This document shows, in pieces, positions 6,411 to 63,977 of a stretch of 64,000 bases of DNA (position 1 is its first letter; every line of letters begins with the position of its first letter). Where the stretch lies: positions 558,001 through 622,000 of the forward strand of contig QPGO01000026.1 of the NCBI GenBank assembly GCA_008632985.1, given 5' to 3'. The DNA comes from Psammoneis japonica. Its lineage: Eukaryota. The notes below the pieces were generated by a model. The model had not been told where the DNA came from. It saw only the letters and a list, made by a program, of their open reading frames with translations, and ran no database searches. The translations under genes were made by a program, and so were the position numbers.

Positions 6411-6442
<32 letters not shown>

Positions 6443-8160: not shown

Positions 8161-8162
8161 CA

Positions 8163-25400: not shown

Positions 25401-25620
25401 CCACCTTGTTCCTCAGACTCTTTGCTTTTCTTGCTGTCCACTCCCGTGCTGTCCTCCTCCTCCTCCTCATTTTCATTGTCATTCTCTTCCTCTTACTCAT
25501 CAGTTTTGCTGTCATCATTGTCATCATCACACTCCTCAAAACAATCCAGTGACTCATGCTGGCAGATCGCATCAAGAATGGCTTCATGCTCGCTCATCCT
25601 CAGTCAAATGCCGGCCGGCC
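22480..25620. mobile_element. Degenerate TpA- and CpG-depleted domain D (TE relic, family unknown)
   Basis: About 3 kb with almost no TA, ending just upstream of the SNRNP40 start. Confidence 0.6.
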
Positions 25621-28387: not shown

Positions 28388-30880
28388 CTAAGGTACAGAT
28401 ATCGTAACCGCATGGCCTCCAACAACCACTCCATTCGCAGAAAACTGGACTTCACACTCAAACACAGTGCCAGAAGCTGTCGTCTCTGGTACAAAATATG
28501 TCTCCATAAAGCTAGCACTCCCACCGGGCTCGACAACTACAGAGCTTGGCTCAAAAGACACAACCAAGTCTCCGCACCCAACAGCAACAGCAAATATTGA
28601 ACAAGGCAGATCCCCAATTGCCGTCAAGATTGCGTCTGCAATATTACTCCCGTCCGAGCTTAGTGGTACGATCGTTCCTCCTGTAGCATCAGCTAAGTCA
28701 TCAAGCTCGTTACCAGCACCTGCGTCCAATCCAATGATGCGAATGTTATTAGCGTTGTTCAAAGCTGCGACCGTGGACTCAAAATCATTCTGATAAGGTC
28801 GTCCAGGAGATGGTACATGAAATGATGCGTCCGTAGTGACTAACAGTAATCGAGCAACCGTGAGATCATCTGACCACCCGCAGTCAGGTTCGAATGTCTC
28901 GGGGTTGATCTGCAATCCCTGAGCGGCTCCTACGATCCCATCATACTGCGACTCTGGTCCATCACCACCACCAGCCGCACGCAACCCATTGATTGCATTT
29001 GTCCAATCATCAAGTTCTGGACTAAGCGGACTGAAAAGCTCGTATGGAAAAGGATAGTCAATGAACCCAGCCACCCCAAATCTTGCCCCTGCAGCAGCTG
29101 CTGATACTTGGGTGAAAATCTCATCTGCGGCACTCCTGAGAGAAACAAGATCGTCAACAAAAGAGCCACTCAAGTCAGATAGTAGACAAACATCGACTCC
29201 ACCCAAGGTGCCACCAGCACCGCACGAAGCATCAGCTGTCGCGCTTCCAATGTTCACAAACGTTTCGCCTTGAGCAACATCTTCATTGACGTCTTCCTCA
29301 GTCCCGGATTCCAAAGTGTCATCCGAGACACTCTCGACTGATTCTATGTTTTCAAGTACGCCATCACCGATGAGTACTTGAATGTTCTCGTTAAAAGCAA
29401 TCTCGAATTCTGCCTCTGACGGCGCACGATCTTCGGCATCAGCTGGACAGAAGCAAGTATCAAGAGACTCTTGGAGGAACCGTTCTTCAAATGGAAACGA
29501 TACAACTGTTTTTCGCCTCCGGTCATTGAAGGATCTAGATCGTCTACCACAACCTCGACATCGCCCTGTGGTTCGGTATAGGTAGGTGAAGCGACGTCCA
29601 CGTTGCAGCCGTCTATTCCTCACGCCGTCAAATTCAATCTCCACAGTATCAATCACACGAAACAACGGGTCACACAACTCGGCATTCAATGCGTTCAAGC
29701 GATTGTAGGTATCTTTGTATTCTTGAACCAAGGCTTCAATCTCTGGAGGTGTGATTGCATCAGGATCACCTGTGTGCTCAATGCTGACCTCCGATTCAAA
29801 AGTAGTGATTTCATCGCCGCAATCGACCTCTTCCAGCTCAATGACGGCATCAACTGCATCAACATTGACAAGAACGCCGTTTTCGGAGAGTTCTTGAACG
29901 GCGGTATTGTATGCGTCGGTGAACTCACTCAATAACGGAGCTGGACAATTACAAATTGTTTCGTCGGGGCCTTCATCCACAGTTATGGCTTTTTTGTAAC
30001 CTTTCTTATGTTCCTGTTTGTACTTGCCAACAGCATGGTGCTTCGTTTTACCAAGCTTTCTCCGTCTCCTGTCATTGAATGCTCTCCGACGTCTCCCACA
30101 GCCACGACACCGTCCTGTGATACGGTAAATAAGCCGTCGTGAACTACGAAGCTCCCTTCGACCTATGGAAGCACTCAACCCCGGATTGATATCTAAATCA
30201 ATATCCACCGTATCGAGTACCAATGATTCCAAACCACAAGCCGACGCCGTTATGCCATTGTATGTATCAAGAAACGCTTGTTCAAGCGTTCTTAGTTCTC
30301 TTCCATTTATGTCGTCTGGAGACTCTCCAGAAACGTCTACAAACAGCGTGCTTTCAAAGAAGTCAAAGGGTTCGTCGCACCCCGTCTCTTCCTCTTCTTT
30401 TGGTTTCTTCGTTTCCGCTTTATGCTTTGCGGTATTCATTTTATGCTTCTTAAATTCCACTATATGCTTCTCTGTATTTGGTTTATGATTTTCGGCTTTC
30501 GATTTATGATTTGCGGCTTTCGGTTTATGTTTTTCCGCTTTCGTTTTATGCTGCTTCGTCCCGGCATGGTCATACTTGACAGGCTTTTCATGAATTGGCT
30601 TGAAATGATGGGTAAACTTGACACCACCACCACCAACCTTTTTTTCGACAGGTTTCTTATGAATTGGCTTGAAATGATGGATAAACTTGACGCCGCCACC
30701 GCCACCCTTTACACCTCCTCCTTTCTTTCCGCCACCTTTCTTTCCACCACCGCCTCCTTTTTTGCCATAATGCCCATAAAATTTATACTCGTGGGGCCAG
30801 CAATACGCACATTGCATGATGCAGGTTATGACAAGCAAGAGGGCCCATGTCATGGAGTGATCATTGTGGAGAACCATCAT
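28388..30880 (-). CDS. Secreted von Willebrand A domain protein with a Lys/His/Gly-rich N-terminus and two internal repeats
   Basis: 830-aa ORF with a signal peptide. VWA/MIDAS features: DVCLLSDLSGS, RFGVAGFID, GGGDGPE, LLVTTDASFH. The repeats contain YRxTGRCRGCGRRxRxFNDRRR. Confidence 0.85.
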   Translation of the reverse strand: MMVLHNDHSMTWALLLVITCIMQCAYCWPHEYKFYGHYGKKGGGGGKKGGGKKGGGVKGGGGGVKFIHHFKPIHKKPVEKKVGGGGVKFTHHFKPIHEKPVKYDHAGTKQHKTKAEKHKPKAANHKSKAENHKPNTEKHIVEFKKHKMNTAKHKAETKKPKEEEETGCDEPFDFFESTLFVDVSGESPDDINGRELRTLEQAFLDTYNGITASACGLESLVLDTVDIDLDINPGLSASIGRRELRSSRRLIYRITGRCRGCGRRRRAFNDRRRRKLGKTKHHAVGKYKQEHKKGYKKAITVDEGPDETICNCPAPLLSEFTDAYNTAVQELSENGVLVNVDAVDAVIELEEVDCGDEITTFESEVSIEHTGDPDAITPPEIEALVQEYKDTYNRLNALNAELCDPLFRVIDTVEIEFDGVRNRRLQRGRRFTYLYRTTGRCRGCGRRSRSFNDRRRKTVVSFPFEERFLQESLDTCFCPADAEDRAPSEAEFEIAFNENIQVLIGDGVLENIESVESVSDDTLESGTEEDVNEDVAQGETFVNIGSATADASCGAGGTLGGVDVCLLSDLSGSFVDDLVSLRSAADEIFTQVSAAAAGARFGVAGFIDYPFPYELFSPLSPELDDWTNAINGLRAAGGGDGPESQYDGIVGAAQGLQINPETFEPDCGWSDDLTVARLLLVTTDASFHVPSPGRPYQNDFESTVAALNNANNIRIIGLDAGAGNELDDLADATGGTIVPLSSDGSNIADAILTAIGDLPCSIFAVAVGCGDLVVSFEPSSVVVEPGGSASFMETYFVPETTASGTVFECEVQFSANGVVVGGHAVTISVP

Positions 30881-31134: not shown

Positions 31135-31930
31135 TTTGCAGCATGTTGCAAATCTCGTAACGCGCCAAAGCACAACCATCAACACAACAACCGCAAGCAA
31201 CAAGCAACACGGCAAATGCTTCACAGAAACTCTGTCAATTGTCATTGTTTTTGCTCTGAGCAGATCTCCACAGCTGAGCAGCAGCACATGCCGGCTTCAC
31301 CAGGTGTGCCTCTCTGGCCAAAGCAAGAGGGTCGCCGCTGCCACCACCACAGCATGTCAGTTGGGTGCAGAGCATTCACTGACATGCTGCATTGTTAAAA
31401 CTTGCACACAAAGAGTCAAGATGCATGGTGGCACTGAGCCATGAAGGTGCCATGTGTGGCAAACTCTGTGGGGAAGCCAGCCGCAAGAGGAGCAGAGCTG
31501 CTGCTGCTTGGTGGGAGCCCATTGCAGCGCTTGCTCAGACATTCCATCACGTGGCTTTCAAAACAGCAACCCACATTTCTGACACAAGACTCTTTAGGGT
31601 TGCAAAGTTGCTCTGTTCCATGGCTGCAGTCTCCCTTTTGTTGCTTGTGGATTCTGGGGGGCATTCTGTCTCTTTGGAAAATTGTGAGTCTTTCTTTTGT
31701 GAGCCAGTGCAGCTCCGACGGTTTGTTGCTCTCTCTCTCAGGACCACTTTTGAATCGCAGCACTTGCCAGGCTTCACCCCGGTTTCGACTGGCCCCTGCC
31801 ACTTCTCGAGGAGGAGTCATCACACTCCATGTTGTACCGGCATGTTGAGGCTCAGTTGAGGCACGTGGCTCAGTGCCTGATGAACCCTCAACCCGAAGGT
31901 GCGCACGCCGATCCCAGATCCTGCACGCCG
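31135..31930. mobile_element. Short TpA-depleted domain E between two divergent genes
   Basis: Only a handful of TA in about 800 bp; TG/CA-rich. Confidence 0.5.
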
Positions 31931-47330: not shown

Positions 47331-47639
47331 CTTCTGTGGCCAAGAACGTAATAAATGATTCTATGTTGTCAACAATCTATTGTATCAATAAATGATATGG
47401 CTAGGCCGGACAAGGTGAAGCATTGCAGCTTTTGTAAGAGTAATGGCCGTTGCGAAGAGGAAATTTTTGATTTCGACGCGACACGCAACGGCGGCGCCAT
47501 CATTCGCCCAACGCATGGGATTCAAACGCGATTCAAACGCGACCCCCCGTCAACCATCAAACACGACCAATAAATCTGGTTTGCACATTTCTTCTTGAAA
47601 GACACAACGAGTGGTGACAGCAGTGGCGAGGGACGACAC

Positions 47640-48231
47640 AAGACACTGCTGGCGCCGCCATGAAAACTGACTCTGGAGTTGTCATGCCATGTGCTTGACA
47701 TGAAATCTTGTTGGAATCTGTCAAGTCTCACCCTGGCAGAGGCTTTTTTTGCCAGCTTTGCATGTCTCTGACAATGCCAGATTTGCCAGCTTTGAATGGG
47801 ATCAGCAAAAAATTAAAAAATCTCAACAAGCATTTGGAGCAAGAGAGAGGCAGACACACAAGTGTTCTTTTGAAATCATCAGCGGCGCTTGAGCCCCCAA
47901 GCACGTGTGCAAAGCAGCTCCATCCAGACAAAAGGCAGTGCCACAAAATCTGTGACTTGGGCCAGAACACCAGCACTTGCTGGCCCTGGCAGCAATGCTC
48001 AGCTCTGAGTGTGAGTGCATTTTCTTGTTTGCTCTGGCTGGGTGCAGCCCATGTTCACGCAACAGAAGTGCGCTGACAATTCCATCTCTCACACAAGTGT
48101 TGTTGTGAAACAACCAACACCACCAGCACAGCAACATGACTTTTGCCAGAGGAGAGCACAGTGTGAGAGGGACTTGCAAAGACAAGCAAGATGTGCTTGG
48201 TTTGACTGACAGATGCAATGGTGCCCCACTG
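47640..48231. mobile_element. TpA-depleted relic DNA flanking the Copia insertion (left)
   Basis: TA and CG are both rare; continuous with 55353-56560 once the Copia element is removed. Confidence 0.5.
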
Positions 48232-48236
48232 CATTG

Positions 48237-48515
48237 TGACAGAAATTGAAGGCAAATGGCAAGAATTCAAACAATGACTCCTTGCTGCTGTCTAAACAGC
48301 AGATGAGTCTCTGCTCAGAGACTGTTGCAGGAGCCGAAAGACGTGCAAGTCGGCACGATCGGGCCACTGTTGTTGTCATTCTTGTGAGCCTTGTGGCTCG
48401 AAAGCAAACTGCATCGCGCACAAACGCACGGAACCAAAGCACACAAAACTGTGCGCGGTGAACTAAACAGCGCGCGACATTTCGCGCGCACCTGAATCCT
48501 GTTCAAATCCTGTCA
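48237..48515 (-). repeat. 3' LTR (279 bp)
   Basis: Direct repeat of 55072-55347, preceded on the minus strand by a purine-rich PPT-like AAACTGGGGAG (48516-48526). Confidence 0.95.
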
Positions 48516-51500
48516 CTCCCCAGTTTGCTTGAGGAGTCACAGAAACAGATTCGACTTCGGGTGGAATGAAGTTCCAGAACATGAGGGGGCGGAGAAGGTC
48601 CCAGATTTGGGAGTGACCCCAATGCTTGCTGAGAATGTCAGCAGGGTTGCGGGAGCCTTCGATGAAGTGGAGCTTGAGGTGGCCAGAGGCGATTGCCTCA
48701 CGCACACGGTGGAATGACAGTGCGGTGTGTCGCTTGTGTAACTTGGAGTGCGGGATGGTGGCACTGTCTACAACTGACTTGTTGTCACCGAACATGCAAC
48801 TGACACCACGGATCGGGACGCCAAGGCAGCGCAGGGTGATGCACAGGTCGACAATCTGCTCGACACAAGTCCTTGTGGCAACAAATTCAGACCCGCAGGT
48901 CGCAGTCTCCATGGTGGCTTGCTTCTCAGAGAACCAATCAGCCGGGAATTTGTTGAGGAAGTGGAGCATTCCCATGACAGAGCGTCCGGTGAGCATGCAA
49001 TGGCACAAGTTTGCATCGACGCAGTGGGTGGCAGTGACGAACTTGCCAAGGGGCGGTGGAGCGTCCTTCGGGATCATCTCTTTTGCTTCGCCATGCATGG
49101 AATGCATCCATTCATGGGCCGGAGCAGGGAGATCCGAACAGTTGGGCTCTTCCGTGCAAACGTGGAGAGCGCCATGTCGCATCTTGGAGAGGCACCCACA
49201 GACGCGTTTGGCACGATCCAAGTGGCCTTGACGGGGCGCAGCTCGGAAGCTAGAGAGTGACATGATGGCCGTGGTGATGTCAATTCAACCAAGAGACACT
49301 GCCCATTGGAGTGAGCCAACAAGGGACTGGAACTTGTGAATGCCATCGGGCTCCAGCAGTTCGGAAGTGTCCAGTTCGGGGTGGTCACCCTTCTCCAGAG
49401 GTGACAGGGCGTTGGTGGCAGGTTTCTCCCCAAACAGTCGGGTGCAGCTGTCGACCATGCACTCGATGTACTTGCGCGGAGACAGGCTCAAGGTGCCATC
49501 GGGATCCCGGGAAAAGTCGCAACCCAGATGGAACTCAATGGGTCCCGTGCCCTTGAGCTTAAACTTGTGCTTTTCCGTGAGAGTGTCGACGAAAGATTGA
49601 GGGTCCTTCATGGCAATGGCGAGGTCATCCACATAAACGGCAATGTGCTCACAGTGGTTGCCGTTCCTGCGCACCCAAATGTTGGGTTCGGCGCGGCAGG
49701 GGAAGAAGCCTTCAGCTCGCAGGCAGTCGGCGAAGCGCTTGTGCCAGCGGAGACCGGAGCTGCGCAGTCCATGCAGGGCCTTGTGGATGACAAGGATGTG
49801 TCCTTCGAGTTTGCCAAATTCGGGTCCGGCTACAATGTAGAGCTTCTCCTCAGTGGTGGCTTCAAGATGGGCATTGCCAATGTCGGTGGCCCATGTCTCC
49901 AACTCGTTGAGTTCGGCCAGGAAAATCATCAGCCGAAGGCCACGGAGGGAGACTGCTCCGGAGCAGACACTGTCGACAGGTGTGTCCGTGAGGTGCCCAT
50001 CGGCCACGAGTCGTGCCTTGTGGCGACTGTCGTGTTTCACGTCGTACACCAGGTGCACTCGGATCTTCTTGTGTCCCGCAGGAGGAGTGGAAGACTCGAA
50101 GGGCCCGCAGTCATGGAAGACTTCGTATTCCTCGAGTTGGTCCATCTCGAGATTAGTTGCGTCTCCCCATTTGCGGTTGCTGTTGCGCTCGTCTAGTGAC
50201 ATGGCGTGTTTGCAGTTCCGGGGAACTTCGCATCCGCACTTGCAGCGAGGTGCAGTGCGGAAGGAGCGAAGCTTGGCTTGGTTGGCCATGCAAAATGGCT
50301 TCTTTTGGCGCCTCGCGATGGTGCGGAACCACTTCCAGCCATCCGTGTCGAGAAGTCCGTTCTCTCGTGCATAGATGGCGCAGGTGACGGGGTCGTCCTT
50401 GGCGATGATGGCGAGAGGCTCGGACGTGATCTCCCCACTTTCCCGTTCAAGCATGATGTTGTAGCTTGAGCCTTTCCAGGTTGGGTCATGAGGCTTCAGA
50501 GGTCCTTCGTGTGACACGATGCGTCGGAATTTCCAAACAGTGGTGTCTTCGTCTTCTTGCTCAATGTGATTCATGATGTCGTTGCAGGCAAGGACTTCCT
50601 CGCATTCATCGTTGTTGACAGAGCAGACGAACTTGGCAAGCTCGGGATTGCCGTTCACTTTCCATTCGTGGTCTTCGATGGCCTTGACGATGCGAGCTCT
50701 GTGGCGTTGTCCATCCTCTTGTGGCTGCATGAGGAAGGCACGTCCGATGATGTCTTGCGGATCGAAAACTGGCATCTTGGGTGTCCTGATCTCCCCATCA
50801 GGAGAATCGATGGGGTTGTCGTCATGGCAAGATTTGATGATGGGTTCAGGTGGCTCCCCATCAGGAGGAGCAAGACGCAGGTTTTGAACGGCAGGATCGG
50901 TGGCAGCGGAGCGCATGTTGGACCGGCAGAGGATCTTCTGAGTCTCGTCAGAGAGAATCTTGAAGGTCATCTTGTGGCCGACGTGCTCAGCAATGCCAAC
51001 GAAGCGTCCACGCAACTCACGGGATTCGGACGGCCAATCGGAGTCATCGAGGTGGAAGCACACGGGTTCCCACCAGTGAAAGCGAAGCAATGGGCTGATG
51101 TCCGGGGTGGAGCCAGTGAGAGTCTCGAGGGGCGTGCGCCAGTGGAGACGTGGGGACACTGTGTGGTTGAGCATGAAGCACACACACATGAGCGCCAGCA
51201 GCCATGTGTGGGCGGGCGAACCAAAACGATCCATGACAGTGTTCGCCATGCGCTTCACGGTCTGGCATCGACGCTCGGCAAAGTTTTGGTGTTGCTGGTG
51301 AGGCTCACTTTGCCAGCTGGAGATGAAGAGGGCACGTGGGATCCCAAGCACTTTGTTGCTGATCTCAACTTGAGCACGGTCACCAATGAGTTTGGATGGG
51401 GCACCACGCTCACGGATCTGATCCTCGAGTGTGTTGACAAACTCTTTGTCCGTCTTGGTGCCGCAGACGTCAGTGACGGTAGACTCGGTGCCAACAAACA

Positions 51501-54132
51501 GTTGGGCGCTGGTGCAACCAGAGTCGATGGCCGGGGTGTCGGCACAAACGGTGTCAGTGGCGACAGGCTCATTGCGGCGGTGCACATTAAGGGCGGGGTT
51601 GGGTGATTTGTGGGCCTTCCTAAGGTGTGTACCGGCGGGCATGCGGGCGTGCTGCGTGGTGCAGTCAAAAGCATGACGGACCGCATCGGCAGGCAGGAAG
51701 CCAAAGTGAGGCCGAAGAGACTCGAAGGGGGGGTCCTTGGGCTGTACAGTGCGCTCCGGGGGCGGAACGTCGTCGCCCTTGGGGTCAATCGCGTGTGGAT
51801 GACACTCATGGAACACGTCGTCGTTCGGAATGAGGTGATCATCGAGGGCGGACGCGTGATCGGCAGACAAGGAAGCGGACATGATGGTCTCGTTGACAAC
51901 GACACGATGACGGCAGTTGCCGCATTCATCAAACAGGTTGGCAGTGGGATCGTCCTGCAGGTCAGAGATCGCGTCGTGCCACTGGTCGTCTTCAGTGACA
52001 GAGTGATCGAGGATGGAAGGATCCCATGTGTCATCACCGGTGAGGATGACATGGGGCAGGGTGTCCCATTCGGCGTCAGTGCAAGGTCGCATGGCAACAC
52101 AAGGCAGGCCGGCCTTGATGTCAATGGGGATGACATGGCCATCAGGAGTGGCAATACGTTGCAAGCCGTTGGGCACCTTGACAGAGCGATCGTTGACATC
52201 CTGTTTGTGCCATTTGAGCTGGCCGCAGGAATGGATGGTCTTGCCCTTGCCCGTGCGTGCGCATTGATGGAGGATGGCGATGACGGGACCACGCTGGGTC
52301 TCAATGACGGCACCAGCGGTGACAACAGGGATGTCCACCAATTGATGGTCGTCAATGCCCTGGACGTCGACTTGGCGAGAGGTGCGTGCAATGACGTGAA
52401 CGTCGTCACCAGCAATGCCGCCGTTGGCCCCACGATCGACTGGAGCACCAGTGCATGTGGAGCGATGAGCAGAGGCAGAGCAAATGACCTTGTGGTTGTC
52501 AACGCGACGGTGAGTGCGGCCGTCAAGTTCTGTGTCATCAGCAGAAGCTGGCGGGGTAGAGGGAGCGGCGGATGGCCCCGGTCGACTGGCATTGGGGGCT
52601 TGGTTAGGAGACAACAGACGTTGCAGATCACCGGGTGGCAGTGGCTTGCGCTTGGTGAGGTGCGCCAGGATGGGATCATCCGAAGTGGCACCCACATTTG
52701 GAGCGGAGTCACCAGAGTCAGCAGGAGTTGTGTTGGACAAGTTGACATCACCGTCTCTCCCAAGGCGTTGGTCGTGAAGGTTGGCCGTAACAGACTCATG
52801 GCAGTTGCTGGCTCGCGGGTTGCGGGGAGGCGGACGAGAATGCTCAAGGATGATCGCCTTGGAGGAATGGGGCAACGAATCCCAGATCCGTTGGTGGTCG
52901 GGAGGGAGACGTTTCCATTGGTCACCGGTGAGGCTGGGACCGTGGGTGTGGGCAGCATTGGCCTGAAGGACGTCAATGTCGCTGTCAATGTCGTAGAACA
53001 CATCGTCGGACAGTTCCTCGGAGCAGACGTTGTGTGCGCACATGGCGCGTCGGGGAGCTCGAGGTGTCGTCTTGGGTTGAAACGCACTGTCGCATTGAGC
53101 TGCCGCGGAGAGGAGCAAGCCACAGCATTGATCGCATGTGAGGCTCTTGCCACTCTGCGTGCGATGCTGATCAGCTTGGTTCTTGACAGCACGGAGTTCC
53201 TCGACAGGGTGTGCGGCATTCTCGAGCATGACGCGCTTCTGTCCTTCAGAGAAGTGGTCACTGGCCGGGATGAGTGCCTCGCACTTGCGCAACTGATCTT
53301 GCCAATGAAGGATGAACCCGTGGGTCGGACCTTTCCAAGTGCCATCACCAAGACGTGCGGTGGTGAGGCACGTCAGCAAGGTGGAGGACTCGACAGATGC
53401 GCGGGTGGAGGCGAGCGCGTGCTCAGACAAGGCGCGGTGGACAGTCTGGGCGTCAGAAGACCCCACATTTTCGCGGATGAGAGCCTTGCCCTTGTCGGTG
53501 AGAAGGATGCGTTCGAAGATGGCGAACATGTGCTTTTGCTGTTCAGCAAAGAGCAGTTTGTCTTCGGGGCTGGTCGGTTTGTACGACGAGTCTAGAATGC
53601 ACTCGACGTCTTGGGCACGGGCTTGTGCCACCAGTGAGGTGTGCCAAGTGTGCCACTGCTTGTCGGATTTGAGAGCCGTGAAAGCGGTGGGATCACGCTT
53701 GATGCCTTGCTTGAAGTCCCGCACCAGGTCGCGTGCCTTGGTCGGGTTGGTGACATGCGGAGGTGCGAGGGGTGAGCTGCCGATGGACACAGAAGACATG
53801 CAGTCGGGGCTGAGGCGGCAGGCAAGGAACTCGTCATGCGTGAACAACGAGGAGTCATTGGCAACGTCAAGACCTTTGTGTGCTTTGACAATGTGCAGAC
53901 CAACTAGAGCTGCTAACATGTTCTTGTGACCACGGGGCAAAGGGATCACATTGGTGCCGTTGTCGCACTCAAGCGAGTCGATTTGGGACAGCATGAACGT
54001 GAACAGTTCTTGATGCGAGTCCGTGCCGTCTTGGGCCAAAGCCAAACGAAGAGGGCTCCCAGCACCTTGGGCAAGCACGGTTCCAACAACGTGCTCGAAA
54101 CCATCGGTTTGTTGCTGACGAGTGAGAACCAT
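48463..54132 (-). pseudogene. Copia gag-pol polyprotein, inactivated by one in-frame TGA and massive Tyr->Cys/His substitution
   Basis: PR VDRGANG; IN D(TVCAD)...D(RAQVE)...QNFAERR; RT KARLVADGH and VYVDD; RNaseH GDNKSV and NPADILSK. TGA at 49285-49287 sits where Arg is expected (WAVSLG*IDI). Confidence 0.95.
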
Positions 54133-55054
54133 GGTAGACAAAAGTGGTGTCAGGACAAGCAATTCTTGTTGGGAAGCGAAGGCAGACTTGAAGCTTGGGT
54201 GAGAATGGACTTGACTTGAAACAGACTTGACTTGAAATCTTGAACTGCCTTAAAATCAGAAGTCGCCGGGCTTTGCTGTCCCGTTCGTTGTTGAGTGCTA
54301 AACTTCCCATCCGGTCCGTAGAGTTGTGCCGGCACGTCCGAACCCGCAGCCAGTGGCGCTTTGGGTTGCTTGCGAGCAGAGCAGCGGGTTGCAAACCCCT
54401 GCAGGTGAGCTGACCAGAGGTGGACAAGACCCCCGAACCATTCTTGTTTTATGTCGGTTGGATTTCCCGATCAGGCTGGCCAGTTGACGCAGGCGTTGGG
54501 CGCTGTGGACGAACGAACAAACGCGGGAAAGCACCCTCGCCCCAACGCAGGCTGTGATCACGGCTGCTTGCTCTCACAGTCATCCTCGTGGACCCAGTGG
54601 AACTGCAGAGCACCAGCAGTCTGGGGCAGATCAGGTGCAATGGACTCGGTGTGCTTGTAGAGTGGCAGCAAAACCGCAGTCCGAAGAGTGGGCACAGGTT
54701 CTTGGCCGTGAAGATGTGTGCATGTGTGCATGTCTTCAGCGACGAAGATCCTTGGACATGTGGGGTTCTAGCCCGTTGACTGATGAACAGGTGTGCCAAG
54801 GGATGAGGATCAAGGACAGACTTGGACATGACCATTGAATGCATGTCTTCAGCGATCAAAGGCAGCACAATCAATCCAGACATCCAGCGGCAAGGAGACT
54901 TGACGGTGACATTAACTTCCTGCCGATGCCCTGGCATTGAATGCGCGTAGACTTGCCGATGTATGTAGAACATGTACGGAGGTCCACGTAGAATTGAAAT
55001 GGCGTCGTTGGTAAATCAACGACGACGATGGCGGTTGCTCAATGGGTTGACAAT

Positions 55055-55071
55055 GAGCAAGACTGTCAATC
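55055..55071 (-). other. Putative primer-binding site complementary to a tRNA anticodon arm (half-tRNA type)
   Basis: GATTGACAGTCTTGC lies directly after the 5' LTR, with no TGG; its complement reads G-CAAGA-CT-GTC-AA-TC. Confidence 0.45.
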
Positions 55072-55347
55072 TGACAGAAATTGAAGGCAAATGGCAAGAA
55101 TTCAAACAACAACTCCTCGCTGCTGTCTAAATGGCAGATGAGTCTCCGCTCAGAGACCGTCACAGGAGCCGAAAGACGTGCAAGTCGGCACAATCGGGCT
55201 ACTGTTGTTATTCTTGTGAGCCTTGTGGCTCGAAAGCAAACTACATCGCGCGCGAACGCGCGGAACTAAAGCACACAAAACTGTGCGCGGTAAACTAAAC
55301 AACGCGCGACATTTCGCGCGCACCTGAATCCTGTTCAAATCCTGTCA
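55072..55347 (-). repeat. 5' LTR (276 bp)
   Basis: Direct repeat of 48237-48515. Confidence 0.95.
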
Positions 55348-55369
55348 CATTGTTTGCCTGACGGATGAT

Positions 55370-55371
<2 letters not shown>

Positions 55372-55404
<33 letters not shown>
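55372..55404. repeat. (AC)n microsatellite
   Basis: Read directly. Confidence 0.95.
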
Positions 55405-55405
<1 letters not shown>

Positions 55406-56560
55406 GGGCAACGTGTCAACAGCTGTGAGCAACTTGTCTCTCTCTTCTCAGAGATGCCACACACCTCTTTTCTTGCTTCTTGCCACATGAAACCTCTCTG
55501 TTGTCAACTCTCTTGAGCAGCAGCTTGCATTGTCACATGTGTTGTTGAAAAGTGCTGCTGTGCTGTTTGTGCAAAACTGCCCAGAATCCAGGTGTTCTTT
55601 CCACCAAGTGGCGAGAATGATCATGAAAAAGAAAGTGGAACAGTCAAGCACCACAGCAGCCACATGAGCAAAAAAAAATTTCAGCTTGCCAAAAGCCAGC
55701 TTCTTCTTGTGACAAACTTGGAGCTGCAGGTTGACTCATTTTAGCACACTCAAGCATCACAAGCAATGCACAGTGTGCTGGCTGGCACCAAGAGAGTGTG
55801 CAAGCAGTTGTCTGGGGGGTGGAGCACTGCACTTGCACGTTGAGCACCCCCATTCTCTCCCCCTCCTTTTTCTCTAACTTGGAGGGTCGCCTGCATGGCT
55901 TGGACATGTGCCTTTCTCATTGAGAAGTGCGCAGCTCATTTGCAACTCCACAGATCATTTTTTGACACTGCTGTGCTCTCCACCCCTTGTTCTGTTCTCA
56001 CACCTCATCCAGAAGATGGGCCAGTGCACTGGCGGTGCTCTCCAGATGATGCACTCTGCACCCAACCTGCAGCAGACCTTGTGTTGATGCACCGTGGATG
56101 GAAAAGGCTCTTCTGGTGCAGATGCTGGCAGGGCGTCTTGCATCACCACCACCAAGCAAAGGCACCAGTGAAGAGCAAACAGAGGGGCCACCAAAGCAGC
56201 GCGCTGCTCTTTTTGGGGGTGGGCCAGGTGGGGGTGGCGGGAGGGCTCAAGGGCTGGTGGCATTGTGGGTCTTCCAGAGAGGCAATGGGTGCACTTGGGA
56301 TTGCTCCCCTGAAGGATGGTTGAGCGAGAAGTGCTGTCCTCGGATCGAAGCATTTGCCCCCCCCCCCCAGCAANACACCACTGGCTCAAGAGGCACACAT
56401 CACAGATGACAACAGCTGCTTCTAAAGAGTGGCTGGAAATGTCATTAAAATTAAAGACCATCTTCCGCCTTCTCCTGTTCCCAGTAGATCCGTGAATTCG
56501 TTGCATTTTATGTGCATGATGCACAATGTGCTGTGTGATGGTGAGGCTGGGGTCAACGCC
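55405..56560. mobile_element. TpA-depleted relic DNA flanking the Copia insertion (right)
   Basis: TA and CG rare, TG/CA-rich; one N at 56374. Confidence 0.5.
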
Positions 56561-56932
56561 CCCGCACGCACGTCGCGTGCGACGGGCGATCTCACGAAAC
56601 ATTTTGGCGGGGAAGATGAAAAAAGAGAACTCCAAACGCGAATAGACCTAGTGAATGCATGTTCAAGAAACGTAGAATTTTTACAGTATTTTGATTTTTG
56701 CATTCGTGAGGTGCGCAAACGAAACCGATCTTCCCATCAATTCCTCCGATTCTTTCACAAAATCGAGTATGACAACGCTCAGAACAAGGCCAAGTTAGGG
56801 TCAAACCTTCCTCTTGCACCTAACACTCTTGAATCTGGAAGAGCACCTTTTACTTTATACTAGTTGACTTGCCTCAGATCAACTAAACTGTACACAGGCG
56901 AGCAGTCTAGACGTGACGAAGGAACAGTGAAA

Positions 56933-57784
56933 ATGCAGGGAAGAGAACCAACAAAAGGGCACATCACGAGGTCTATGCGAGCCTTGATTACTTTGATACC
57001 TGCTGGATTGTTTGTGCTCGTTACTATGCAACCCATTAAACAGCTAAAGAGCGGTACTTTTGATGCCCTGAAAACGTCTACCATCGAAGAAAAGATTAAC
57101 TCCTGCGGGTCAAGTTCTTCGGTCTTTGATTCAATCGTTGAAGAAGCCTACAACAGCGCCACTCAAAGTCCACAAGGGACTATACGCAAGAAATTTGATG
57201 TGGATTATTGGGAGAATGAATCCAATTTGACCACCACCGGGGGGCTCGGGAGAATGGATCGAATAATGCTTGGAGAATTGTACGGAGAAGCTGACTCTGT
57301 CTTTGAGTATGGACTGGGAGAATCCACATACATCGCCAACCACGTTGGTGTTCCTCGATACGCTGGTATTGACTCTGATCCGTTATGGGTAGCTGATGTG
57401 CGTGACAAAGTTGCAAGCCATTTTCGTTTCTACTACGGTGACGTTGGTGCAACGGGAAATTGGGGCTATCCTAGCAACAGCAACCTGCCAAAGAACAAGC
57501 TCAACTATCAACTGGCACCTCTTGTTTTGGAACAAAAGCCATTTGATGTATACATGGTGGATGGACGTTGGCGCGTCGCCTCTGCCTTGGCTAGCTTTTT
57601 GCATGCAAGCTCGAGAGGAGCAGATCCGCTCAAAACCAAGGTGCTGATTCATGATTGCGAACGCAAGTATTATCACAATGCGGACCACTTGCTCAACCTG
57701 ACGAGGCACTCAGGCGGCAAACTCTGTCTTTACCAGCGTTTCCCGCATGCAACCGATGAAGCATTGCAGAAACTTGTGGAATGA
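56933..57784 (+). CDS. Class I SAM-dependent methyltransferase-like protein with an N-terminal membrane anchor
   Basis: VFEYGLGEST, GIDSDPLW, FDVYMVDGRWRVA and VLIHD; hydrophobic LITLIPAGLFVLVTM. Confidence 0.7.
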   Translation: MQGREPTKGHITRSMRALITLIPAGLFVLVTMQPIKQLKSGTFDALKTSTIEEKINSCGSSSSVFDSIVEEAYNSATQSPQGTIRKKFDVDYWENESNLTTTGGLGRMDRIMLGELYGEADSVFEYGLGESTYIANHVGVPRYAGIDSDPLWVADVRDKVASHFRFYYGDVGATGNWGYPSNSNLPKNKLNYQLAPLVLEQKPFDVYMVDGRWRVASALASFLHASSRGADPLKTKVLIHDCERKYYHNADHLLNLTRHSGGKLCLYQRFPHATDEALQKLVE

Positions 57785-58040
57785 ACAGTCAAAGGATGTT
57801 AAAAGATGAACACATCAAGCCTCATCCTAATAACCATGCTTACGCATAGAACTCATCAACTTTTGCTAAAATCATTCAAACATTGAAATCTTCTCCAGCC
57901 TATGTCTATTATGTATGTAACCAGCATGCAGTTGCGCATGTACATTTGAAAGCCAACAACAAAAATATGCGAGATCTTCAAAAGCGGCAGGCCGGCGGCG
58001 CATAAAATAGTCAGAAGAAAACATGACAACGGCATAGACA

Positions 58041-58150
58041 GCACATTTCGTCGAGAAGCAGCACATTCATATTTTTTCGGAATTTTTTTTTTGCATGGCA
58101 CCTCCTGTGAACACCAGCTTGACCTTGTCAACACTTTGGAGGCTCTGGAC
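58041..58150 (-). pseudogene. Short relic copy of the amidohydrolase 3' end and UTR
   Basis: cgtcgagaagcagcacat...cctcctgtgaacaccagcttgaccttgtcaacactttggaggctct aligns to about 62617-62710. Confidence 0.75.
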
Positions 58151-60260
58151 AATCTCACAAAATGTTTGAGTGCTGCCATCGCTTTTCTTGATGGAGAAGG
58201 CTCTGCTGGCACAGTTGCTGCCATCTCCCAAACCCAAGCTGGATGGTGGTGCCTTGCAGGCCCCTTTGTGGCCTGTTCTGGTTTTCTGTGTGGTGATTTG
58301 GCTGTGCTGGCTGGCAGCAGAAATTGGTTGTTGACTCCCAACTCTCTCTGGAAGTTTGTGCCAGGGTCTTGCCATGCTCTGTGGTGACTCACTGGTGGGC
58401 CTGTGCATGGAGTGCCACCTGAACAAAGCCAAGCTGTTCATCTGAGCACCTGACAACTTGACTGCAGAACAGCAGCAACACATGCTTGCAAGCACTTGCT
58501 TGGGCATCAGAGTGGCTGGGAGCAACAACTGAGCACATTTGGAAGGGACCAACATGGCTGACAAACAATGGTGATGACGGCATTGTGCCAACTGGAAACA
58601 AAGTGAGGCAGAGACAGATCTCAAAAAATCTGCTTGATTGTCCAGGTCTGGCCATGAGACCAGCCAAGACCAGGTGTGCCAGCAGACTCCTTGCCCCAAC
58701 AGACATTGTGTTTGCTGCACTGCTGGGTGCATGGGAGCAGGAGTCAGATCTTTGAGCACATTGTGAAATGGTGGTGGCACCATTTTGTTGTCACATTGCA
58801 GGGCATGAATGTTCCCACCAGAGCTTGCAGATGTGCTGCTCTGATGGGAGTGAACACAAAATGATGGTGATGTTCCAACTGTGACAGGGTTGTTCACCTG
58901 TCAACATGCAATCCTTTCTCCTGTCCCAGCATCCAACGATGGGTGATGTGATGACAGAGTTTTGTCTCTCTGGCCATCATCTTGTTGCTTGTTGGCAGTG
59001 GCAAAATCATGTTCTCCTGAGACCTGGGGCATGTTGCTGTGGGTGTGTCCTCATTGAATGGCAGCAGCAAAATTCGCCATGGCCGTGCCACCACACATTG
59101 CCGGTGGCTGGCTTTGTGCGCATCTGCCAGCTGCTGGCACTCCCTGAGCCTGGCATTTCATGCAAGTGGCTGGTGTGGAGTTCTGATGAAGCTGTCTTTT
59201 TCAGCTCCACAGCACATGATGAGTGTGGTGCTCTCTTTGCCAAAATGACACATTGCTCGAATGGCTGCTCAGTTTTCAGCTCTTGTCAATTTTGGGAGGA
59301 AAAATGACTCCCAAAGGCAAGAGGCAGCATCAGAGGCCAAATTTGTCACATCTCAACCATGCACTTAACTTGCATGGCAGCTCTAAGAAATGTGCTGGGG
59401 GGGCTCTTTTTTCCTGCAGACTTTTGTGCAAGGCCTGAGGGCACACACACTTGAGTGTGCAGCAGGGCTTTTGGATCCCCACAACCGCAAGGCATCTGCA
59501 CATTGTCATGGAATGAATCTGAGTGTCTCATGCAGATGAAGCATCTCCCATTGTTCTTTGAAGAAACTGTGGTGACACACAGATTTGTGGCAGCTGCAAG
59601 ACTTGTGCTGTTCTGAGCATTCAACAATGACAGATTTTTGGGTTGTTGTGTTCTAAAGGTGACCACTGCAAGAACATTTTCTCTGTTCACAAAGGCAGTG
59701 CAGAGTGTTGCATGTTCACAAAATGAATGTTGCCATTGCAACAGTGCTTTGTTTGAATTGGAGCTGAGCAGAACTCTCACAAGTGAGGGGAAAAACACTT
59801 CAGCTGCTGCTGGGCTGAGAAAAAGATGCTGCAGCTTGTGCACGGCACATGCAGGTGATGTGCAGCTTTGACTTCTGCAAATTTGTTTGTTTTGAAGTTG
59901 TTTTCATTAAAGTCACATGGGTAAAATCTGGGGAGGGGGCACTCTTTGTTTCTTTTGCTGTGATCATTTTTTAAAATGATTGTGTCGGTGTCTCCCGGAG
60001 CTGGTGCGTTCTTGTCCCTTTTGGCTGATGTCATGTGCAATCTGCAGAATGCCAAATTTGTCAACAACACTGCTGTTGCATTTTAGAGTTTTTAACCCAA
60101 TGGCTTTTTGGGTTGGCAAGTGCATCATGATGGATTAGATGATTGCACGCTGCACAGTCCGATGACCTTTGATGCCAATGCAGTGCCGTGTAGATGGGCT
60201 GTTGCAACTCCATTGGCACAGCAACTCATCATGTTGACAACTCACAGGCATGTGTGAAAC
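58150..60260. mobile_element. Degenerate TpA- and CpG-depleted domain G (TE relic)
   Basis: Almost no TA over about 2 kb. Confidence 0.55.
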
Positions 60261-60339
60261 AAGTGCAGAGTGTTTGCCTGCCCCACAGCCACTGGCGCTG
60301 CAGTTGTTGACTTGCCAATTGACTCAAGAGAGAGCATGC

Positions 60340-60850
60340 GCGTGCGAGAAGAACCAACAAACAATGTGCACATCACAAAGTCTGTGAGAACCCTGATTGC
60401 ACACTGCATTTTCAGTTTTTGTCACTGTGCAACTGTTTGCACCATCAAAGATTGGTGCTTTTATGACCATGGAAACTTCACACAACAACAAAAGGAAAAA
60501 TGTGGAAATGACATTTTCCATGTTTGATGCAATCTTTGAACAAGCCCACAATGGAGCCATTCAAAGTCCGCCAGGAGGTGTCCGAAGACATTTTGATGTG
60601 GATCATTGGAACAATGAATCCAATTTGTCCATGATCAAATGATGCTTGGAGAATTGCACAGAGAAGCCAACTCTGTCTTTCAGCATGAACTGGGAGAATT
60701 TTCGCACATTGCCAACCATGTTGGTGCTCCTCGATGTGATGGCATTGATTCTGACCCATCTTGGATTGCTCAGGTGTGTGGCAAAGTTGTGGATCACTTT
60801 CATTTTCATTTTGGTGATGTTGGTGAAATGAGAGATTGGGGCTGTCCTGG
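60340..60850 (+). pseudogene. Hypermutated, truncated paralog of the 56933-57784 methyltransferase-like gene
   Basis: MLGELHREANSVFQHELGEFSHIANHVGAPRCDGIDSDPSW aligns with MLGELYGEADSVFEYGLGESTYIANHVGVPRYAGIDSDPLW. Confidence 0.9.
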
Positions 60851-61171
60851 GTCCTGGCCATGAACCCCAAGCTGTCAAAAAATTGTTTGTTGCGAGCACG
60901 CAGCCACCAGCACTCAGTTGGGACCACCATGGGTTTGAGCCAACAGCCAAAATGTGAGACAACTTCAAAAGCGGCTGGCATGCAGCCAGAAGTCCAAAGA
61001 GATCATGACAATGGCAAACCACATGGCTTGCACTTCGGCACGAACCATGCCAAACCAGTGGGCCAGCGGGCCAAACCGATTTTCGGAGGGAGACCGACGT
61101 TAAAGAAGAGCCAGGACGAGTTCCTCTCGAAATGCATCCAGAAATCCTCAACATTTTGTCAGCGTGCATCA

Positions 61172-61514
61172 CAGTTTTACAGAATGTTTTTACGCAGGAC
61201 GCCTCCTTTGAACACCAGCTTGACCTTGTCAACACTTTGGAGGCTCTTGACACCTCGAGAGGCGTGTTGACAAGTCAAGACAAATCACATCCGCGTCATA
61301 CTGTATAACCGCTTTTCAACTGCCCCGTGAGAGGAGCTGCGAGGAGCCCTGTTTTCCAAGAGACAAGGCTCCATGGATGGTCGTTGCCTCTCTATTGCTT
61401 TTTCTGGCGTCATGCCCAGATCCACCTGGTATTCCAACTTTTTGGCGGACGTGCCGTAACCTTTCGCATAAAAAATATCGCATCCAGTAGCAATCTTGAC
61501 TCCTCCTGCCGCAA
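61172..61514 (-). pseudogene. Partial duplicate of the amidohydrolase 3' region, with micro-insertions
   Basis: High-identity match to about 62634-62949, with several short inserted duplications. Confidence 0.9.
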
Positions 61515-61568: not shown

Positions 61569-62594
61569 ATGGTCTTACCTACAAGAACAACAAGGCAGGT
61601 GGTGCCTCTGACTAGATGGAGTTCCGTGTCACTTATAGGCTTTTGTATCTGCTTTATTGTCCTCATGATGCAGCAGTTTGAGTTGAACGATTGCAAGGAC
61701 GATGCGGCGCCAGCATACCAACCTCGTCCTCTCCGAACCAACATTTTCCGGGGCCTCGACCTGCTTGCTGACCCAGAACTAGGGTCCAAACCATTACGAG
61801 AAGTAATTATCAGGGAGCAGATGGGTATTGAGCCATTTCCAGCAGAAACGTGGTTCGACAAAGCCATCCTCCCTCGCCTGAAAGAAAGCAAACTATTTGT
61901 TGACGTAGGTGCGAACCTTGGGCAGTTTGCGATACCCATGGCAAAACGAGGGCATCAAGCCATAAGTTTTGAGCCTATGAAGGACACTTGTGCACAACTT
62001 CAATCCAAAACATCAGTCGGTGGTTTGGAACAAAATGTCGAAGTGCATTGCGCTGCAGCAAGCAGTGAGAAGAAGAACGTGATCTTTCACCTGCCAGATG
62101 GTATCACGGCCTCTGCAAAAGAAGTTTCCCAAGAGCAGGCTCAAAAGCTTGAACAAGCAGGGAAAAAGGATGAGCTACAGTATCTCGAAACAAAGACAGT
62201 TGATTCTGTTGTTGGGCCGCCTCGTGAGGTGTTTATGCTCAAGACCGACACACAGGGATATGAAATGAGTGTTCTCAATGGAGCAAAGGAACTTTTGCAA
62301 TCCGGAAGGGTCAAGTTTTTGCTTGTGGAGTTTAGCTACTGGCTTTTGAATGCTGCAGGAACGAAGCCATTGGAGTTGCTGGACTTAATCGCGGAGAGCG
62401 GATACATTTGCACGTATCTGGCCTATCATGGTGTGAAGAAGTTAAGTGAGGAACGAAACAGCTATGGACAGCTTGATGCCCCAAATTTCGATACGCGAAG
62501 AATCAGTGTTGGTTTTGAAGAATTTGTAAACTCTCTCAGAGATGTCAACTTGGGAAAACCAGGATGGACGGACCTATTTTGTTGGAAAGCGTGA
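61569..62594 (+). CDS. FkbM-family SAM-dependent methyltransferase with an N-terminal membrane anchor
   Basis: FVDVGANLGQF, SFEP and MLKTDTQGYEMSVLNGA...LLVEF. Confidence 0.9.
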   Translation: MVLPTRTTRQVVPLTRWSSVSLIGFCICFIVLMMQQFELNDCKDDAAPAYQPRPLRTNIFRGLDLLADPELGSKPLREVIIREQMGIEPFPAETWFDKAILPRLKESKLFVDVGANLGQFAIPMAKRGHQAISFEPMKDTCAQLQSKTSVGGLEQNVEVHCAAASSEKKNVIFHLPDGITASAKEVSQEQAQKLEQAGKKDELQYLETKTVDSVVGPPREVFMLKTDTQGYEMSVLNGAKELLQSGRVKFLLVEFSYWLLNAAGTKPLELLDLIAESGYICTYLAYHGVKKLSEERNSYGQLDAPNFDTRRISVGFEEFVNSLRDVNLGKPGWTDLFCWKA

Positions 62595-62638
62595 ATTTCC
62601 GGTAAACCACATTTCTCGTCGAGAAGTAGCACATAGTT

Positions 62639-63977
62639 TTACAGAATGTTTTTATGCAGGATGCCTCCTTTGAACACCAGTTTGATCTTTTCAACACTTT
62701 GGAGGCTCTTGATATCCTCGAGAGGGTTGAAGTCAAGACAAATCACATCCGCGTCATAACCGCTTCTCAACTGCCCCGTGAGAGGAGCCTGTTTTCCAAG
62801 AGACAAGGCTCCATGGACGGTCGTTGCCTCTATTGCTTTTTCTGGCGTCATGCCCAGATCCACCAGGTATTCCAACTCTTTGGCGGACGTACCGTAACCT
62901 TCCGCATAAAAAATATCGCATCCCGTAGCAATCTTGACTCCTGCCGCAATAGCCTTGGCGTGAGCCTCTCTACTAGCCTTGTAGACGAGCTTCATCTTGT
63001 CCCAGGATACCTCGGACATGCTAGGTGGCCGTGGCCCATCGATTCCTTCGGACCCAACCAAACATTCCAGGACCCATCGAGTCGGAACCACCAATGCATC
63101 CTTTTCCAACGCCAATTGAATCGCTTCATCGTCTGCCAACGTAAAGTGCTCAATACACTCAACACCATTGTTGAGCGCATTCACAATTCCCTGCTTGGCA
63201 TGACAATGAGCGCACACGAGTCGATCATGGCGGGCCGCTTCGTCTGTCATGGCTTGAATTTCTCAGGACTAAACTGGGGTTGGGTCGGTAATCCGAGAGT
63301 CTGTGACATGACTCCACCCGAGCAACACAGTTTAATGACGGATGCTCCGGCACGAATATGACCACGGACTTTTCGGACGCAATTGTCTTGTCCGTCGGTA
63401 CCAGGACCAAACAATCCACCTTCATCACAATCTTGAATACTGCAGAGACTACCAAAGCACTGCAGGGGTACTTCCGCAGGCATATCGCAATGTCCACCAG
63501 TAATGTGGATTGGGAAATTGGCGTGATAAATTCTAGGACCCACAATTGATCCCTCCTCCACTAGAACTTTGAGATGCTTGCCGAGTCCTCCCACCTCTCT
63601 AACCGACGTAAAGCCACTCTCGAGTATCTTTTGCAAACGAGGAACGTCCCGACCAACCTTGACGGCTCTATCCTCAAAACGATTTTCCACCACATTTCAT
63701 AATGCGGCGACTCAATCCCATGAGCACCCAAAAAATGAGAATGGACATCCCACATTCCCGGCATGCAACATTTCACCGAATATTCCTTGGCAACAGCACC
63801 ACCACCAACCAGCAATTCCTTGCAGGCTGGATCCTCACGAGAACCAGCATGTAAAATCTTGCCTTTTTCCATAATCACGACGCCATTGGTAGTGGGCGGC
63901 TGAGATGCAGGTCCGTGTAGGAGAATCTCGGCGTATATTACGGTCGAGGGGATGACGCAAAGGCACTGTTGGGACAT
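62639..63977 (-). CDS. Metal-dependent amidohydrolase (prolidase-like, Amidohydro_1); two apparent frameshifts
   Basis: MPGMWDVHSH, GFTSVREVG, IKLCCSGGV, AHCH...IEH, IATGCD and GQLRSGYDADVI, across ORFs 63561-63977, 63247-63693 and 62639-63250. Confidence 0.9.

Follow-up and report, generated by a model that had tools for sequence, protein, structure and literature searches.

We analysed 64,000 nucleotides of the diatom Psammoneis japonica (assembly GCA_008632985.1, contig QPGO01000026.1, positions 558,001 to 622,000 of the forward strand); this whole stretch, referred to as the window and numbered from its first letter, was treated as diatom nuclear DNA. It contains six discrete domains in which nearly every TpA and most CpG dinucleotides have undergone in-place transitions to TpG or CpA. 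The conversion affects any DNA inside a domain, whether retrotransposon, host pseudogene, intergenic spacer or gene fragment, and halts within less than 100 bases at the edges of an island that holds an expressed-looking gene (gene A). A decayed copy of gene A lies inside one of these purged domains, and three duplicated segments with one copy inside and one outside the domain support targeting by position, not by homology.

Gene A, its decayed copy and the tandem duplication

Gene A (56933 to 57784, plus strand) encodes a 283-amino acid protein from an uncharacterised family that is widespread in diatoms and has no Pfam family; a Pfam scan of the protein gave no match. Homologs numbered 280 at E<=0.001, and those named came from the raphid pennate diatoms Amphora coffeiformis, Epithemia and Fistulifera solaris, with 45-63% identity. 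Across a 40-sequence alignment, the gene A protein conforms at each of the 45 invariant columns. The intact gene and its pseudogene copy (60336 to 60860, plus strand) are 3398 bases apart. The pseudogene retains its ATG at 60336 and is truncated, with 4 in-frame stops, at least two frameshifts (one of them a 22-base deletion) and the final ~100 codons gone. Its identity to the gene A protein was 58% across 74 residues, and the tblastn match spanned residues 4-182.

Pairwise alignment of 57125-57472 with 60523-60848 gave 325 aligned columns and 71 mismatches. All 15 gene A TA in this alignment were gone from the pseudogene, replaced by CA (7), TG (4), TT (2), TC (1) or CT (1). Thirteen of the 15 gene A CG were also gone, with TG (7), CA (4), CT (1) or AG (1) in their place. 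Dinucleotides found only in the pseudogene amounted to 0 TA and 2 CG. The replacement of TA by TG or CA at 11 of 15 sites is as expected for A>G/T>C transitions at TpA, and the replacement of CG by TG or CA, again at 11 of 15 sites, is the transition excess expected of methylated-CpG decay. Background divergence outside TA and CG sites was 15.3% (40 mismatches), from which 4.2 losses per 15 dinucleotides would be expected; against this background, the chance of losing 15 of 15 TA was 6e-9 and that of losing at least 13 of 15 CG was 4e-6. The pseudogene region from 60463 to 61100 contains zero TA. The original prediction, made from the letters of this DNA, that the copy differs at essentially every TA and carries CG to TG/CA changes as well was thus upheld, and all seven examples it had quoted are present in the pairwise alignment. 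Its further claim, that the process strikes host DNA that does not belong to a transposable element (TE), agrees with this TA- and CG-purged pseudogene.

The direction of change was polarised with 60 aligned diatom homologs, over 161 codons. At 74 non-synonymous codon differences, the outgroups sided with the intact gene at 48 and with the pseudogene at 16, and were tied at 10. Every one of the strongly conserved tyrosine columns reads TAY (Y, pyrimidine) in gene A and CAY or TGY in the pseudogene; these are Y117 (tyrosine in 60/60 outgroups), Y143 (59/60), Y167 (58/60), Y133 (50/60), Y126 (44/60) and Y73 (41/60). Similarly, R110, R157 and R165 are encoded by CGN (N, any base) in gene A and correspond to CAA, TGT and CAT, respectively, in the pseudogene. 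Conserved Tyr and Arg codons are intact in gene A and altered in the copy, which makes TA and CG ancestral and TG and CA derived. The converse, that TG and CA might be ancestral, had been named as a reason to doubt the original prediction; the 60 homologs point the other way.

Gene A contains 33 TA and 39 CG. A synonymous transition could remove 16 of these TA and 29 of these CG, yet all are present. The non-coding flanks of the gene (56430-56932 and 57785-58070) had observed-to-expected ratios (o/e) of 0.51 and 0.66 for TA and of 1.05 and 0.88 for CG, similar to the rest of the window. In agreement with what had been predicted, only the copy within the domain was affected, the TA and CG of gene A and its flanks being normal. 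Purifying selection on the intact copy had been raised as an alternative, to be judged by erosion of its synonymous TA. These were not depleted; since silently removable TA and CG were kept and the non-coding flanks are normal, purifying selection does not account for the asymmetry. Gene A has not come under the purging process. It sits in an island of normal composition (56423 to 58070, 1648 bases) with purged domain on either side, and TA and CG positions restart or cease in less than 100 bases at each end. A single N, at 56374, stands right behind a run of ten C.

Self-comparison of the window indicated that the duplication is bigger than the earlier note saw, also including the 3' spacer and the 3' end of a convergent amidohydrolase gene. 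Unit 1 consists of gene A, the spacer at 57951-58034 and the amidohydrolase 3' end at 58042-58151; unit 2, collinear with it, consists of the pseudogene (60336-60860), the spacer at 60938-61016 and an amidohydrolase fragment at 61169-61514. Divergence at positions other than TA and CG was alike across the segment pairs (40/325 for the gene, 9/79 and 6/79), which fits a single duplication event. The pseudogene arose when gene A, its 3' spacer and the amidohydrolase 3' end were duplicated in tandem at the DNA level.

The domain that holds the pseudogene (D6, 58071-61030) spans the junction of the two units, and its edges cut across both. Gene A and spacer copy 1 lie outside the domain, the pseudogene and spacer copy 2 inside; for the amidohydrolase the arrangement is reversed, with fragment 1 in and fragment 2 out. 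In all three pairs the inside copy has lost TA and CG and the outside copy is normal. Spacer copy 2 (plus strand), to which copy 1 (plus strand, normal composition) is 75% identical, is purged and lacks 2 TA and 4 CG particular to copy 1. Fragment 1 (minus strand, at and inside the left domain edge, found by blastn and tblastn) matches 61169-61252 and 62608-62712 and has 0 TA, compared with 2-3 in these counterparts. Fragment 2 (minus strand) carries indels and is unpurged; aligned as 61170-61514 with 62632-62949, both outside the domain, it showed 14 mismatches in 317 columns; TA was common to fragment 2 and the full gene at 9 of 12 sites, and CG at 13 of 17. Because the inside copy is purged and the outside copy normal in three reciprocal pairs, these comparisons support targeting by position, not by homology.

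The original prediction had attributed the asymmetry to a chromatin or methylation domain spreading from a TE at 58150-60260, as opposed to homology pairing. The positional part of this proposal stands, by virtue of the reciprocal three-segment pattern. The part that invokes spreading from a TE lacks support, the TE identity of this purged DNA (58152-60300, segment X) being unsupported by Pfam or protein matches or by terminal repeats. No Pfam match was obtained for the open reading frames (ORFs) of 58071-61100, and the 276-amino acid ORF at 58073-58900 (minus strand) had 0 matches by phmmer in 1.84 billion representatives. Segment X showed no noteworthy terminal direct or inverted repeats, and a transition-tolerant alignment with the region upstream of gene A scored 47, with a shuffle maximum of 52.5. 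The possibility that segment X is the remainder of the amidohydrolase was ruled out, as the tblastn match ends at 58156. A weak hint of a dispersed repeat came from raised depth and loose contig ends at 59845-60052. About 2.1 kb of D6 has no second copy in the window.

Both 3'-end fragments derive from the minus-strand amidohydrolase gene at 62639-63977, whose C-terminal ORF matches PF01979 (E=2.3e-18). It runs through three overlapping frames (63561-63977, 63247-63693 and 62639-63250), indicating short introns or frameshifts. Between fragment 2 and this gene lies gene B (61569 to 62594, plus strand), which encodes an FkbM-type methyltransferase (PF05050, E=1.3e-13) and has a normal composition with 34 TA and 38 CG. 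In a public sequencing run, second contigs of similar depth were found for 57125-57811 (gene A) and 61173-61504 (amidohydrolase fragment). They are ~4% off the window in gene A (14/358) and also in the amidohydrolase fragment, and represent a divergent allele or a further paralog. Two contig joints, 57292>61776 and 60533>57194, came from one such paralog or allele contig and were taken as alignment artefacts.

Purged domains and the nested Copia element

Purging was confined to discrete blocks, the rest of the window being normal (TA o/e 0.55). Dinucleotide profiles delimited domains D1 (4989-7777), D2 (8143-10642), D3 (16938-19394) and D4 (22883-25494); D5 (47572-56422) hosts a younger Copia element, and D6 (58071-61030) contains 11 TA, 28 CG, 392 TG and 308 CA in 2960 bases. 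The six domains with the nested Copia element make up ~35% of the window. Pooled domain composition was computed over 15,039 bases, excluding the Copia element, and compared with the background. TA o/e was 0.03 in the domains and 0.55 in the background, and CG o/e was 0.22 and 0.92; TG rose to 1.80 from 1.23 and CA to 1.86 from 1.24. The remaining twelve dinucleotides shifted by at most 0.23 in o/e, the largest shift being that of GC, from 1.03 to 1.26. Over the same bases the shortfall of TA and CG (1141) was close to the surplus of TG and CA (1116). Around gene A and its copy, edges were less than 100 bases wide, with TA and CG restarting at ~56350-56425, ceasing at ~58070-58080 and restarting at ~61030. 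Totals of TG versus CA per domain are uninformative on strand, pre-existing TG and CA dominating them.

A tblastx comparison of all domains with the window revealed no further decayed host-gene copy. Pfam scans of domain ORFs, 16 at first and later 108, found no credible family among the 108 ORFs of at least 75 amino acids from purged DNA outside the Copia element, pseudogene frames included; a Connexin43 match in one of them (E=0.0097) was sub-threshold and was put down to chance. The purged domains carry 47 ORFs of at least 120 amino acids in about 22 kb, which are long and spurious. Outside the six domains, two ~240-base TA-free runs with intermediate CG occur at 31159-31834; they may represent a purged patch that is small or just beginning, or a chance feature of a gene. 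Short tandem direct repeats were found in normal-composition DNA at 13510-13756 (units of ~70 bases) and 30578-30710 (~69 bases).

The few TA left in the domains have a distinct context. Twenty-two of the 30 residual TA lie in TAAA/TTTA; outside the domains, 243 of 1597 do (Fisher 4e-12). The shorter context TAA/TTA takes in 28 of the 30. A new TA arising from TG or CA would land in the TAAA/TTTA context only ~14% of the time. TA followed by AA (TAAA/TTTA) is thus largely spared in the domains.

The element in D5 is a Ty1/Copia retrotransposon (48228 to 55348, minus strand; RVT_2, E=5e-26) with long terminal repeats (LTRs) at 48228-48516 and 55062-55348. Its TA o/e is 0.15 and its CG o/e 0.86, and the D5 flanks beyond the LTRs (47572-48227 and 55349-56422) are depleted of both dinucleotides. 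Flanks lacking both, around an element low in TA but not in CG, argue for a younger insertion and for TA loss outrunning CG loss. The Copia element therefore inserted into an already purged, older domain, and the loss of TA is much faster than that of CG. Of its 51 residual TA, 14 lie at 54900-55300, the element's own 5' LTR and promoter end. A perfect (AC)16 microsatellite (55372-55404) adjoins the right LTR on its far side.

The two LTRs provided a record of changes within the element. Over 286 columns they show 20 mismatches, of which 4 fall at TA sites and 7 at CG sites; three TG-versus-CA double differences account for another 6, and the last 3 are of other kinds. Put differently, 4 of 6 TA sites and 7 of 24 CG sites differ, compared with 3 of 220 among the other columns. 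Independent hits on a single ancestral TA or CG would leave just such double differences. The left LTR lost 4 TA and 6 CG that were kept in the right one, and the right LTR lost 1 CG. As the LTRs differ at TA and CG sites, conversion took place after insertion, and nearly all post-insertion LTR change is of the TA and CG type.

The coding region of the element was affected in the same way. A 1654-codon frame (49288-54249, minus strand) has 0.5% Tyr, 5.1% His and 3.0% Cys, and a Tyr content below 3.0% was found in 0 of 120 homologs. This frame is open solely because TAA and TAG cannot occur; the element is dead. An alignment with 20 homologs has 37 columns that are at least 80% Tyr; at these the Copia sequence carries Cys (21), His (6), Phe (4) or Tyr (6), so that 27 of the 31 lost conserved tyrosines became Cys or His. 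Other conserved residues were kept (Arg 45/51, Leu 58/62, Phe 25/26). Residues 294-1222 (window ~53370-50580) form a nearly unbroken Tyr>Cys run, with 17 Cys and 2 His, and residues 1263-1640 (window ~50460-49330) have Cys, His and retained Tyr mixed. The run looks like strand-coordinated clustering of the changes.

Support for D6 came from k-mer assembly of the public run, which holds 90% of sampled words (0.11 for run X2 and 0.00 for run X3). A contig of 3122 bases at depth 37.7 covers 58117-61238 with 0 differences, and D6 is present as a single form at that depth. An exact k-mer contig over D6 argues against a consensus or base-calling artefact.

The signature is not confined to this window. 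A metagenome scan with the single gene A protein as query returned no relative; an alignment query gave 52 loci encoding gene A relatives (211 kb). TA o/e fell below 0.15 in 5 of their 767 windows of 500 bases, all in L003 and L004, two separately deposited, 99.98% identical contigs of one organism. At ~11340-12900 of L003 (and equally in L004), TA o/e was 0.10-0.26, CG 0.3-0.65 and TG/CA up to 1.98. This block is intergenic, adjoins a GFO/IDH/MocA oxidoreductase gene and gave no Pfam match; the contig's initial 500 bases are likewise low in TA and CG. Collectively, these data indicated that the signature exists, in a milder form, in at least one further diatom-like genome.

Proposed explanation and alternatives

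We consider it probable that TA and CG are converted in place and by position in silent, methylated domains, and that the loss of TpA is enzymatic. The domains would be silent, methylated chromatin of the type that marks diatom TEs, by analogy with Phaeodactylum, whose TEs are reported to carry CpG methylation dependent on DNMT5a (PMC9998398), and with the H3K9me2/3 and H3K27me3 marks also described on diatom TEs (PMC4504042). Within them, CpG loss would be ordinary deamination of 5-methylcytosine (5mC), and TpA loss a separate, fast and probably enzymatic A-to-G change. The simplest chemistry for the latter would be deamination of adenine to inosine at 5'-TA; the signature would be the one measured directly in the chlorarachniophyte Bigelowiella natans. 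The net result would be irreversible inactivation, with Tyr codons turned into Cys or His and promoters and motifs scrambled.

Several points weigh against this explanation. The pseudogene is 15.3% diverged elsewhere and hence old, and the timing of its TA and CG loss is not derivable. Transversions make up 4 of the 15 pseudogene TA losses and, as Tyr>Phe, 4 of the Copia element's 31 lost tyrosines; they are not what pure deamination predicts. The outgroups were proteins 45-63% identical, so that polarisation was limited to non-synonymous sites. The supporting run may stem from the same sample as the assembly. Finally, the sparing of TAAA was not reproduced in L003 (4/18 versus 96/821, p=0.26).

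The transversions bear on the strongest alternative, in which the domains are targeted in the same way and the chemistry differs. It invokes either a thymine modification of the 5-hydroxymethyluracil (5hmU) or base-J type, or polymerase-eta-like errors at WA (W, A or T) during patch repair of the T:G mismatches left by 5mC deamination. In dinoflagellates 5hmU prefers TA, and the hotspot of polymerase eta is WA; we know of no 5hmU- or base-J-type base in diatoms. Changes of TA to CA and to TG cannot separate lesions on the A strand from those on the T strand, TA and CG losses share the same domains, and polymerase errors would yield transversions such as the 4/15 in the pseudogene and the 4 Copia Tyr>Phe changes. 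A WA signature should also deplete AA, which is undepleted in the domains (o/e 1.25 versus 1.16 outside). Moreover, TA loss in the Copia element is far ahead of CG loss, so CG deamination was not the trigger for most TA changes. We therefore regard this other chemistry as unlikely.

Editing before integration, in which the RNA or complementary DNA (cDNA) of a retroelement is edited in the manner of ADAR or APOBEC and inserted already purged, would account for the excess of Tyr>Cys (sense-strand A>G, 21) over Tyr>His (6) in the Copia element, near-unbroken over residues 294-1222. The pseudogene has the reversed bias (2 Cys, 6 His). The Copia element is coded on the minus strand and the pseudogene on the plus strand, so that A>G is favoured on the window minus strand in both (pooled 27 versus 8, p=0.002; reversal, Fisher p=0.011), in a test picked after the data had been seen. 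The same chromosomal strand being favoured speaks against editing of an element's own transcript. In addition, the pseudogene, spacer and amidohydrolase fragment were duplicated collinearly at the DNA level, intergenic sequence included, and are not retrocopies; the differences between the LTRs at TA and CG sites are post-insertion changes; and the domain flanks beyond the LTRs are purged more than the element. Taken together, these observations make pre-integration editing improbable.

A homology-triggered process resembling fungal repeat-induced point mutation (RIP), where pairing recognises duplicates and both copies are mutated, was prompted by the fact that the purged segment duplicates a nearby gene, and by the report that diatoms other than Phaeodactylum encode a DNMT4 related to fungal RID (PMC9998398). 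However, in each of the three duplicated segments only a single copy was purged, and which one was set by position. The intact copy retained its silent-site TA and CG and has normal flanks, the duplicate pair outside the domain (317 columns, 14 mismatches) is unpurged, and the ~2.1 kb of domain without a second copy is single-copy within the window and purged nonetheless. The chemistry is also opposite, as classical RIP makes TpA from CpA. A RIP-like trigger is thus very improbable.

Heavily modified DNA can give systematic consensus errors in long-read-only assemblies, and the N beside a homopolymer at 56374 might be read in that light, but the idea that TG and CA were written for modified TA and CG is hardly credible given the 3122-base k-mer contig, exact at depth 37.7 with 0 differences and not expected of noisy reads, the 40 other substitutions, 22-base deletion and truncation of the pseudogene, and the similar block that another diatom shows in two metagenome contigs deposited independently of each other.

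Positional conversion in silent domains is therefore retained as the working explanation, and the findings point to a mutational genome defence based on position rather than on similarity. A bolder proposal, offered tentatively and with a somewhat smaller chance of being right than of being wrong, is that diatoms run a chromatin-domain-directed editing defence. In resident silenced DNA, an enzyme that spares TAAA would change the A of 5'-TA to G, far faster than 5mC deamination and alongside it, irreversibly recoding transposons and trapped host DNA. With Bigelowiella, this could represent an ancient positional immunity across the stramenopiles, alveolates and rhizarians (SAR).

Relation to known systems

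A search of the full-text literature, with most subscription journals outside its reach, turned up no account of diatom TpA being depleted or hypermutated. Irreversible mutational genome defence is documented mainly as fungal RIP, and the first measurement of TpA-specific hypermutation in resident DNA came from a 2026 preprint on one chlorarachniophyte. The window shows the same signature in a diatom, to saturation. The window also offers a natural control absent from the preprint, three duplicated segments with one copy in and one copy out of the domain, which separates position from homology targeting and mutation from selection. It further supplies a relative rate (TpA loss far exceeding CpG loss), a candidate enzyme footprint (TAAA spared) and mapped edges for a search for boundary factors. 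There are consequences for annotation as well. Domains without TAA and TAG stops yield long spurious ORFs, and gene callers would call the dead Copia frame intact; TEs in such domains escape homology-based annotation, and both the TE content and the gene calls of diatoms may be biased.

The closest parallel is B. natans. In mutation-accumulation lines of this species, two integrated viral regions acquired 211 and 20 new mutations, of which 210 and 20, respectively, were A>G/T>C and without exception at TpA, as reported in the main text of the preprint (Mettrop et al., bioRxiv 10.64898/2026.01.13.699255). The same text describes TpA-poor, CpA- and TpG-rich clusters genome-wide and proposes an ADAT2-like deaminase. 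Regional TpA>TpG/CpA transitions and a long-term footprint of low TpA and high CpA and TpG in blocks are shared with the domains described here. Reverse transcriptase and transposase domains are reported there to be enriched among TpA-poor genes, and the hypermutation was interpreted as defence. The differences are several. The host is a diatom (stramenopile) here and a rhizarian there. TpA o/e is 0.03 here, near saturation, whereas the giant-virus (nucleocytoplasmic large DNA virus, NCLDV) region of B. natans is given a Rho of 0.45. CpG is co-depleted here, and the term 'CpG' occurs 0 times in the main text of the preprint. Intergenic DNA and the pseudogene of a host gene are among the victims here, and the edges have been located to less than 100 bases. 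A spared TAAA/TTTA context is seen here. New mutations were measured directly there, and only fixed differences are available here.

Among longer-known systems, fungal RIP is likewise an irreversible transition mutagenesis that ruins TEs, can kill host gene duplicates and leaves dinucleotide-skewed blocks. It is triggered by homology and hits both copies, whereas here one copy is hit, by position. Classical RIP is also described as creating TpA from CpA (PMC2621366); in the domains, in contrast, TpA is down to an o/e of 0.03 and CpA up to 1.86. Methylated-CpG decay in the silenced transposons of vertebrates and plants resembles the present case in its CG>TG/CA changes and its restriction to TE-rich silent DNA. 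Unlike CpG loss, the loss of TpA is not explained by such decay, and it is faster and more complete. The APOBEC3 and ADAR enzymes of animals also deaminate mobile elements with a preference for dinucleotide context, and ADAR is cited in the preprint as preferring a 5' U (bioRxiv 10.64898/2026.01.13.699255). Their substrate is cDNA or RNA that has yet to integrate, whereas here resident chromosomal DNA, non-mobile DNA included, has been altered.

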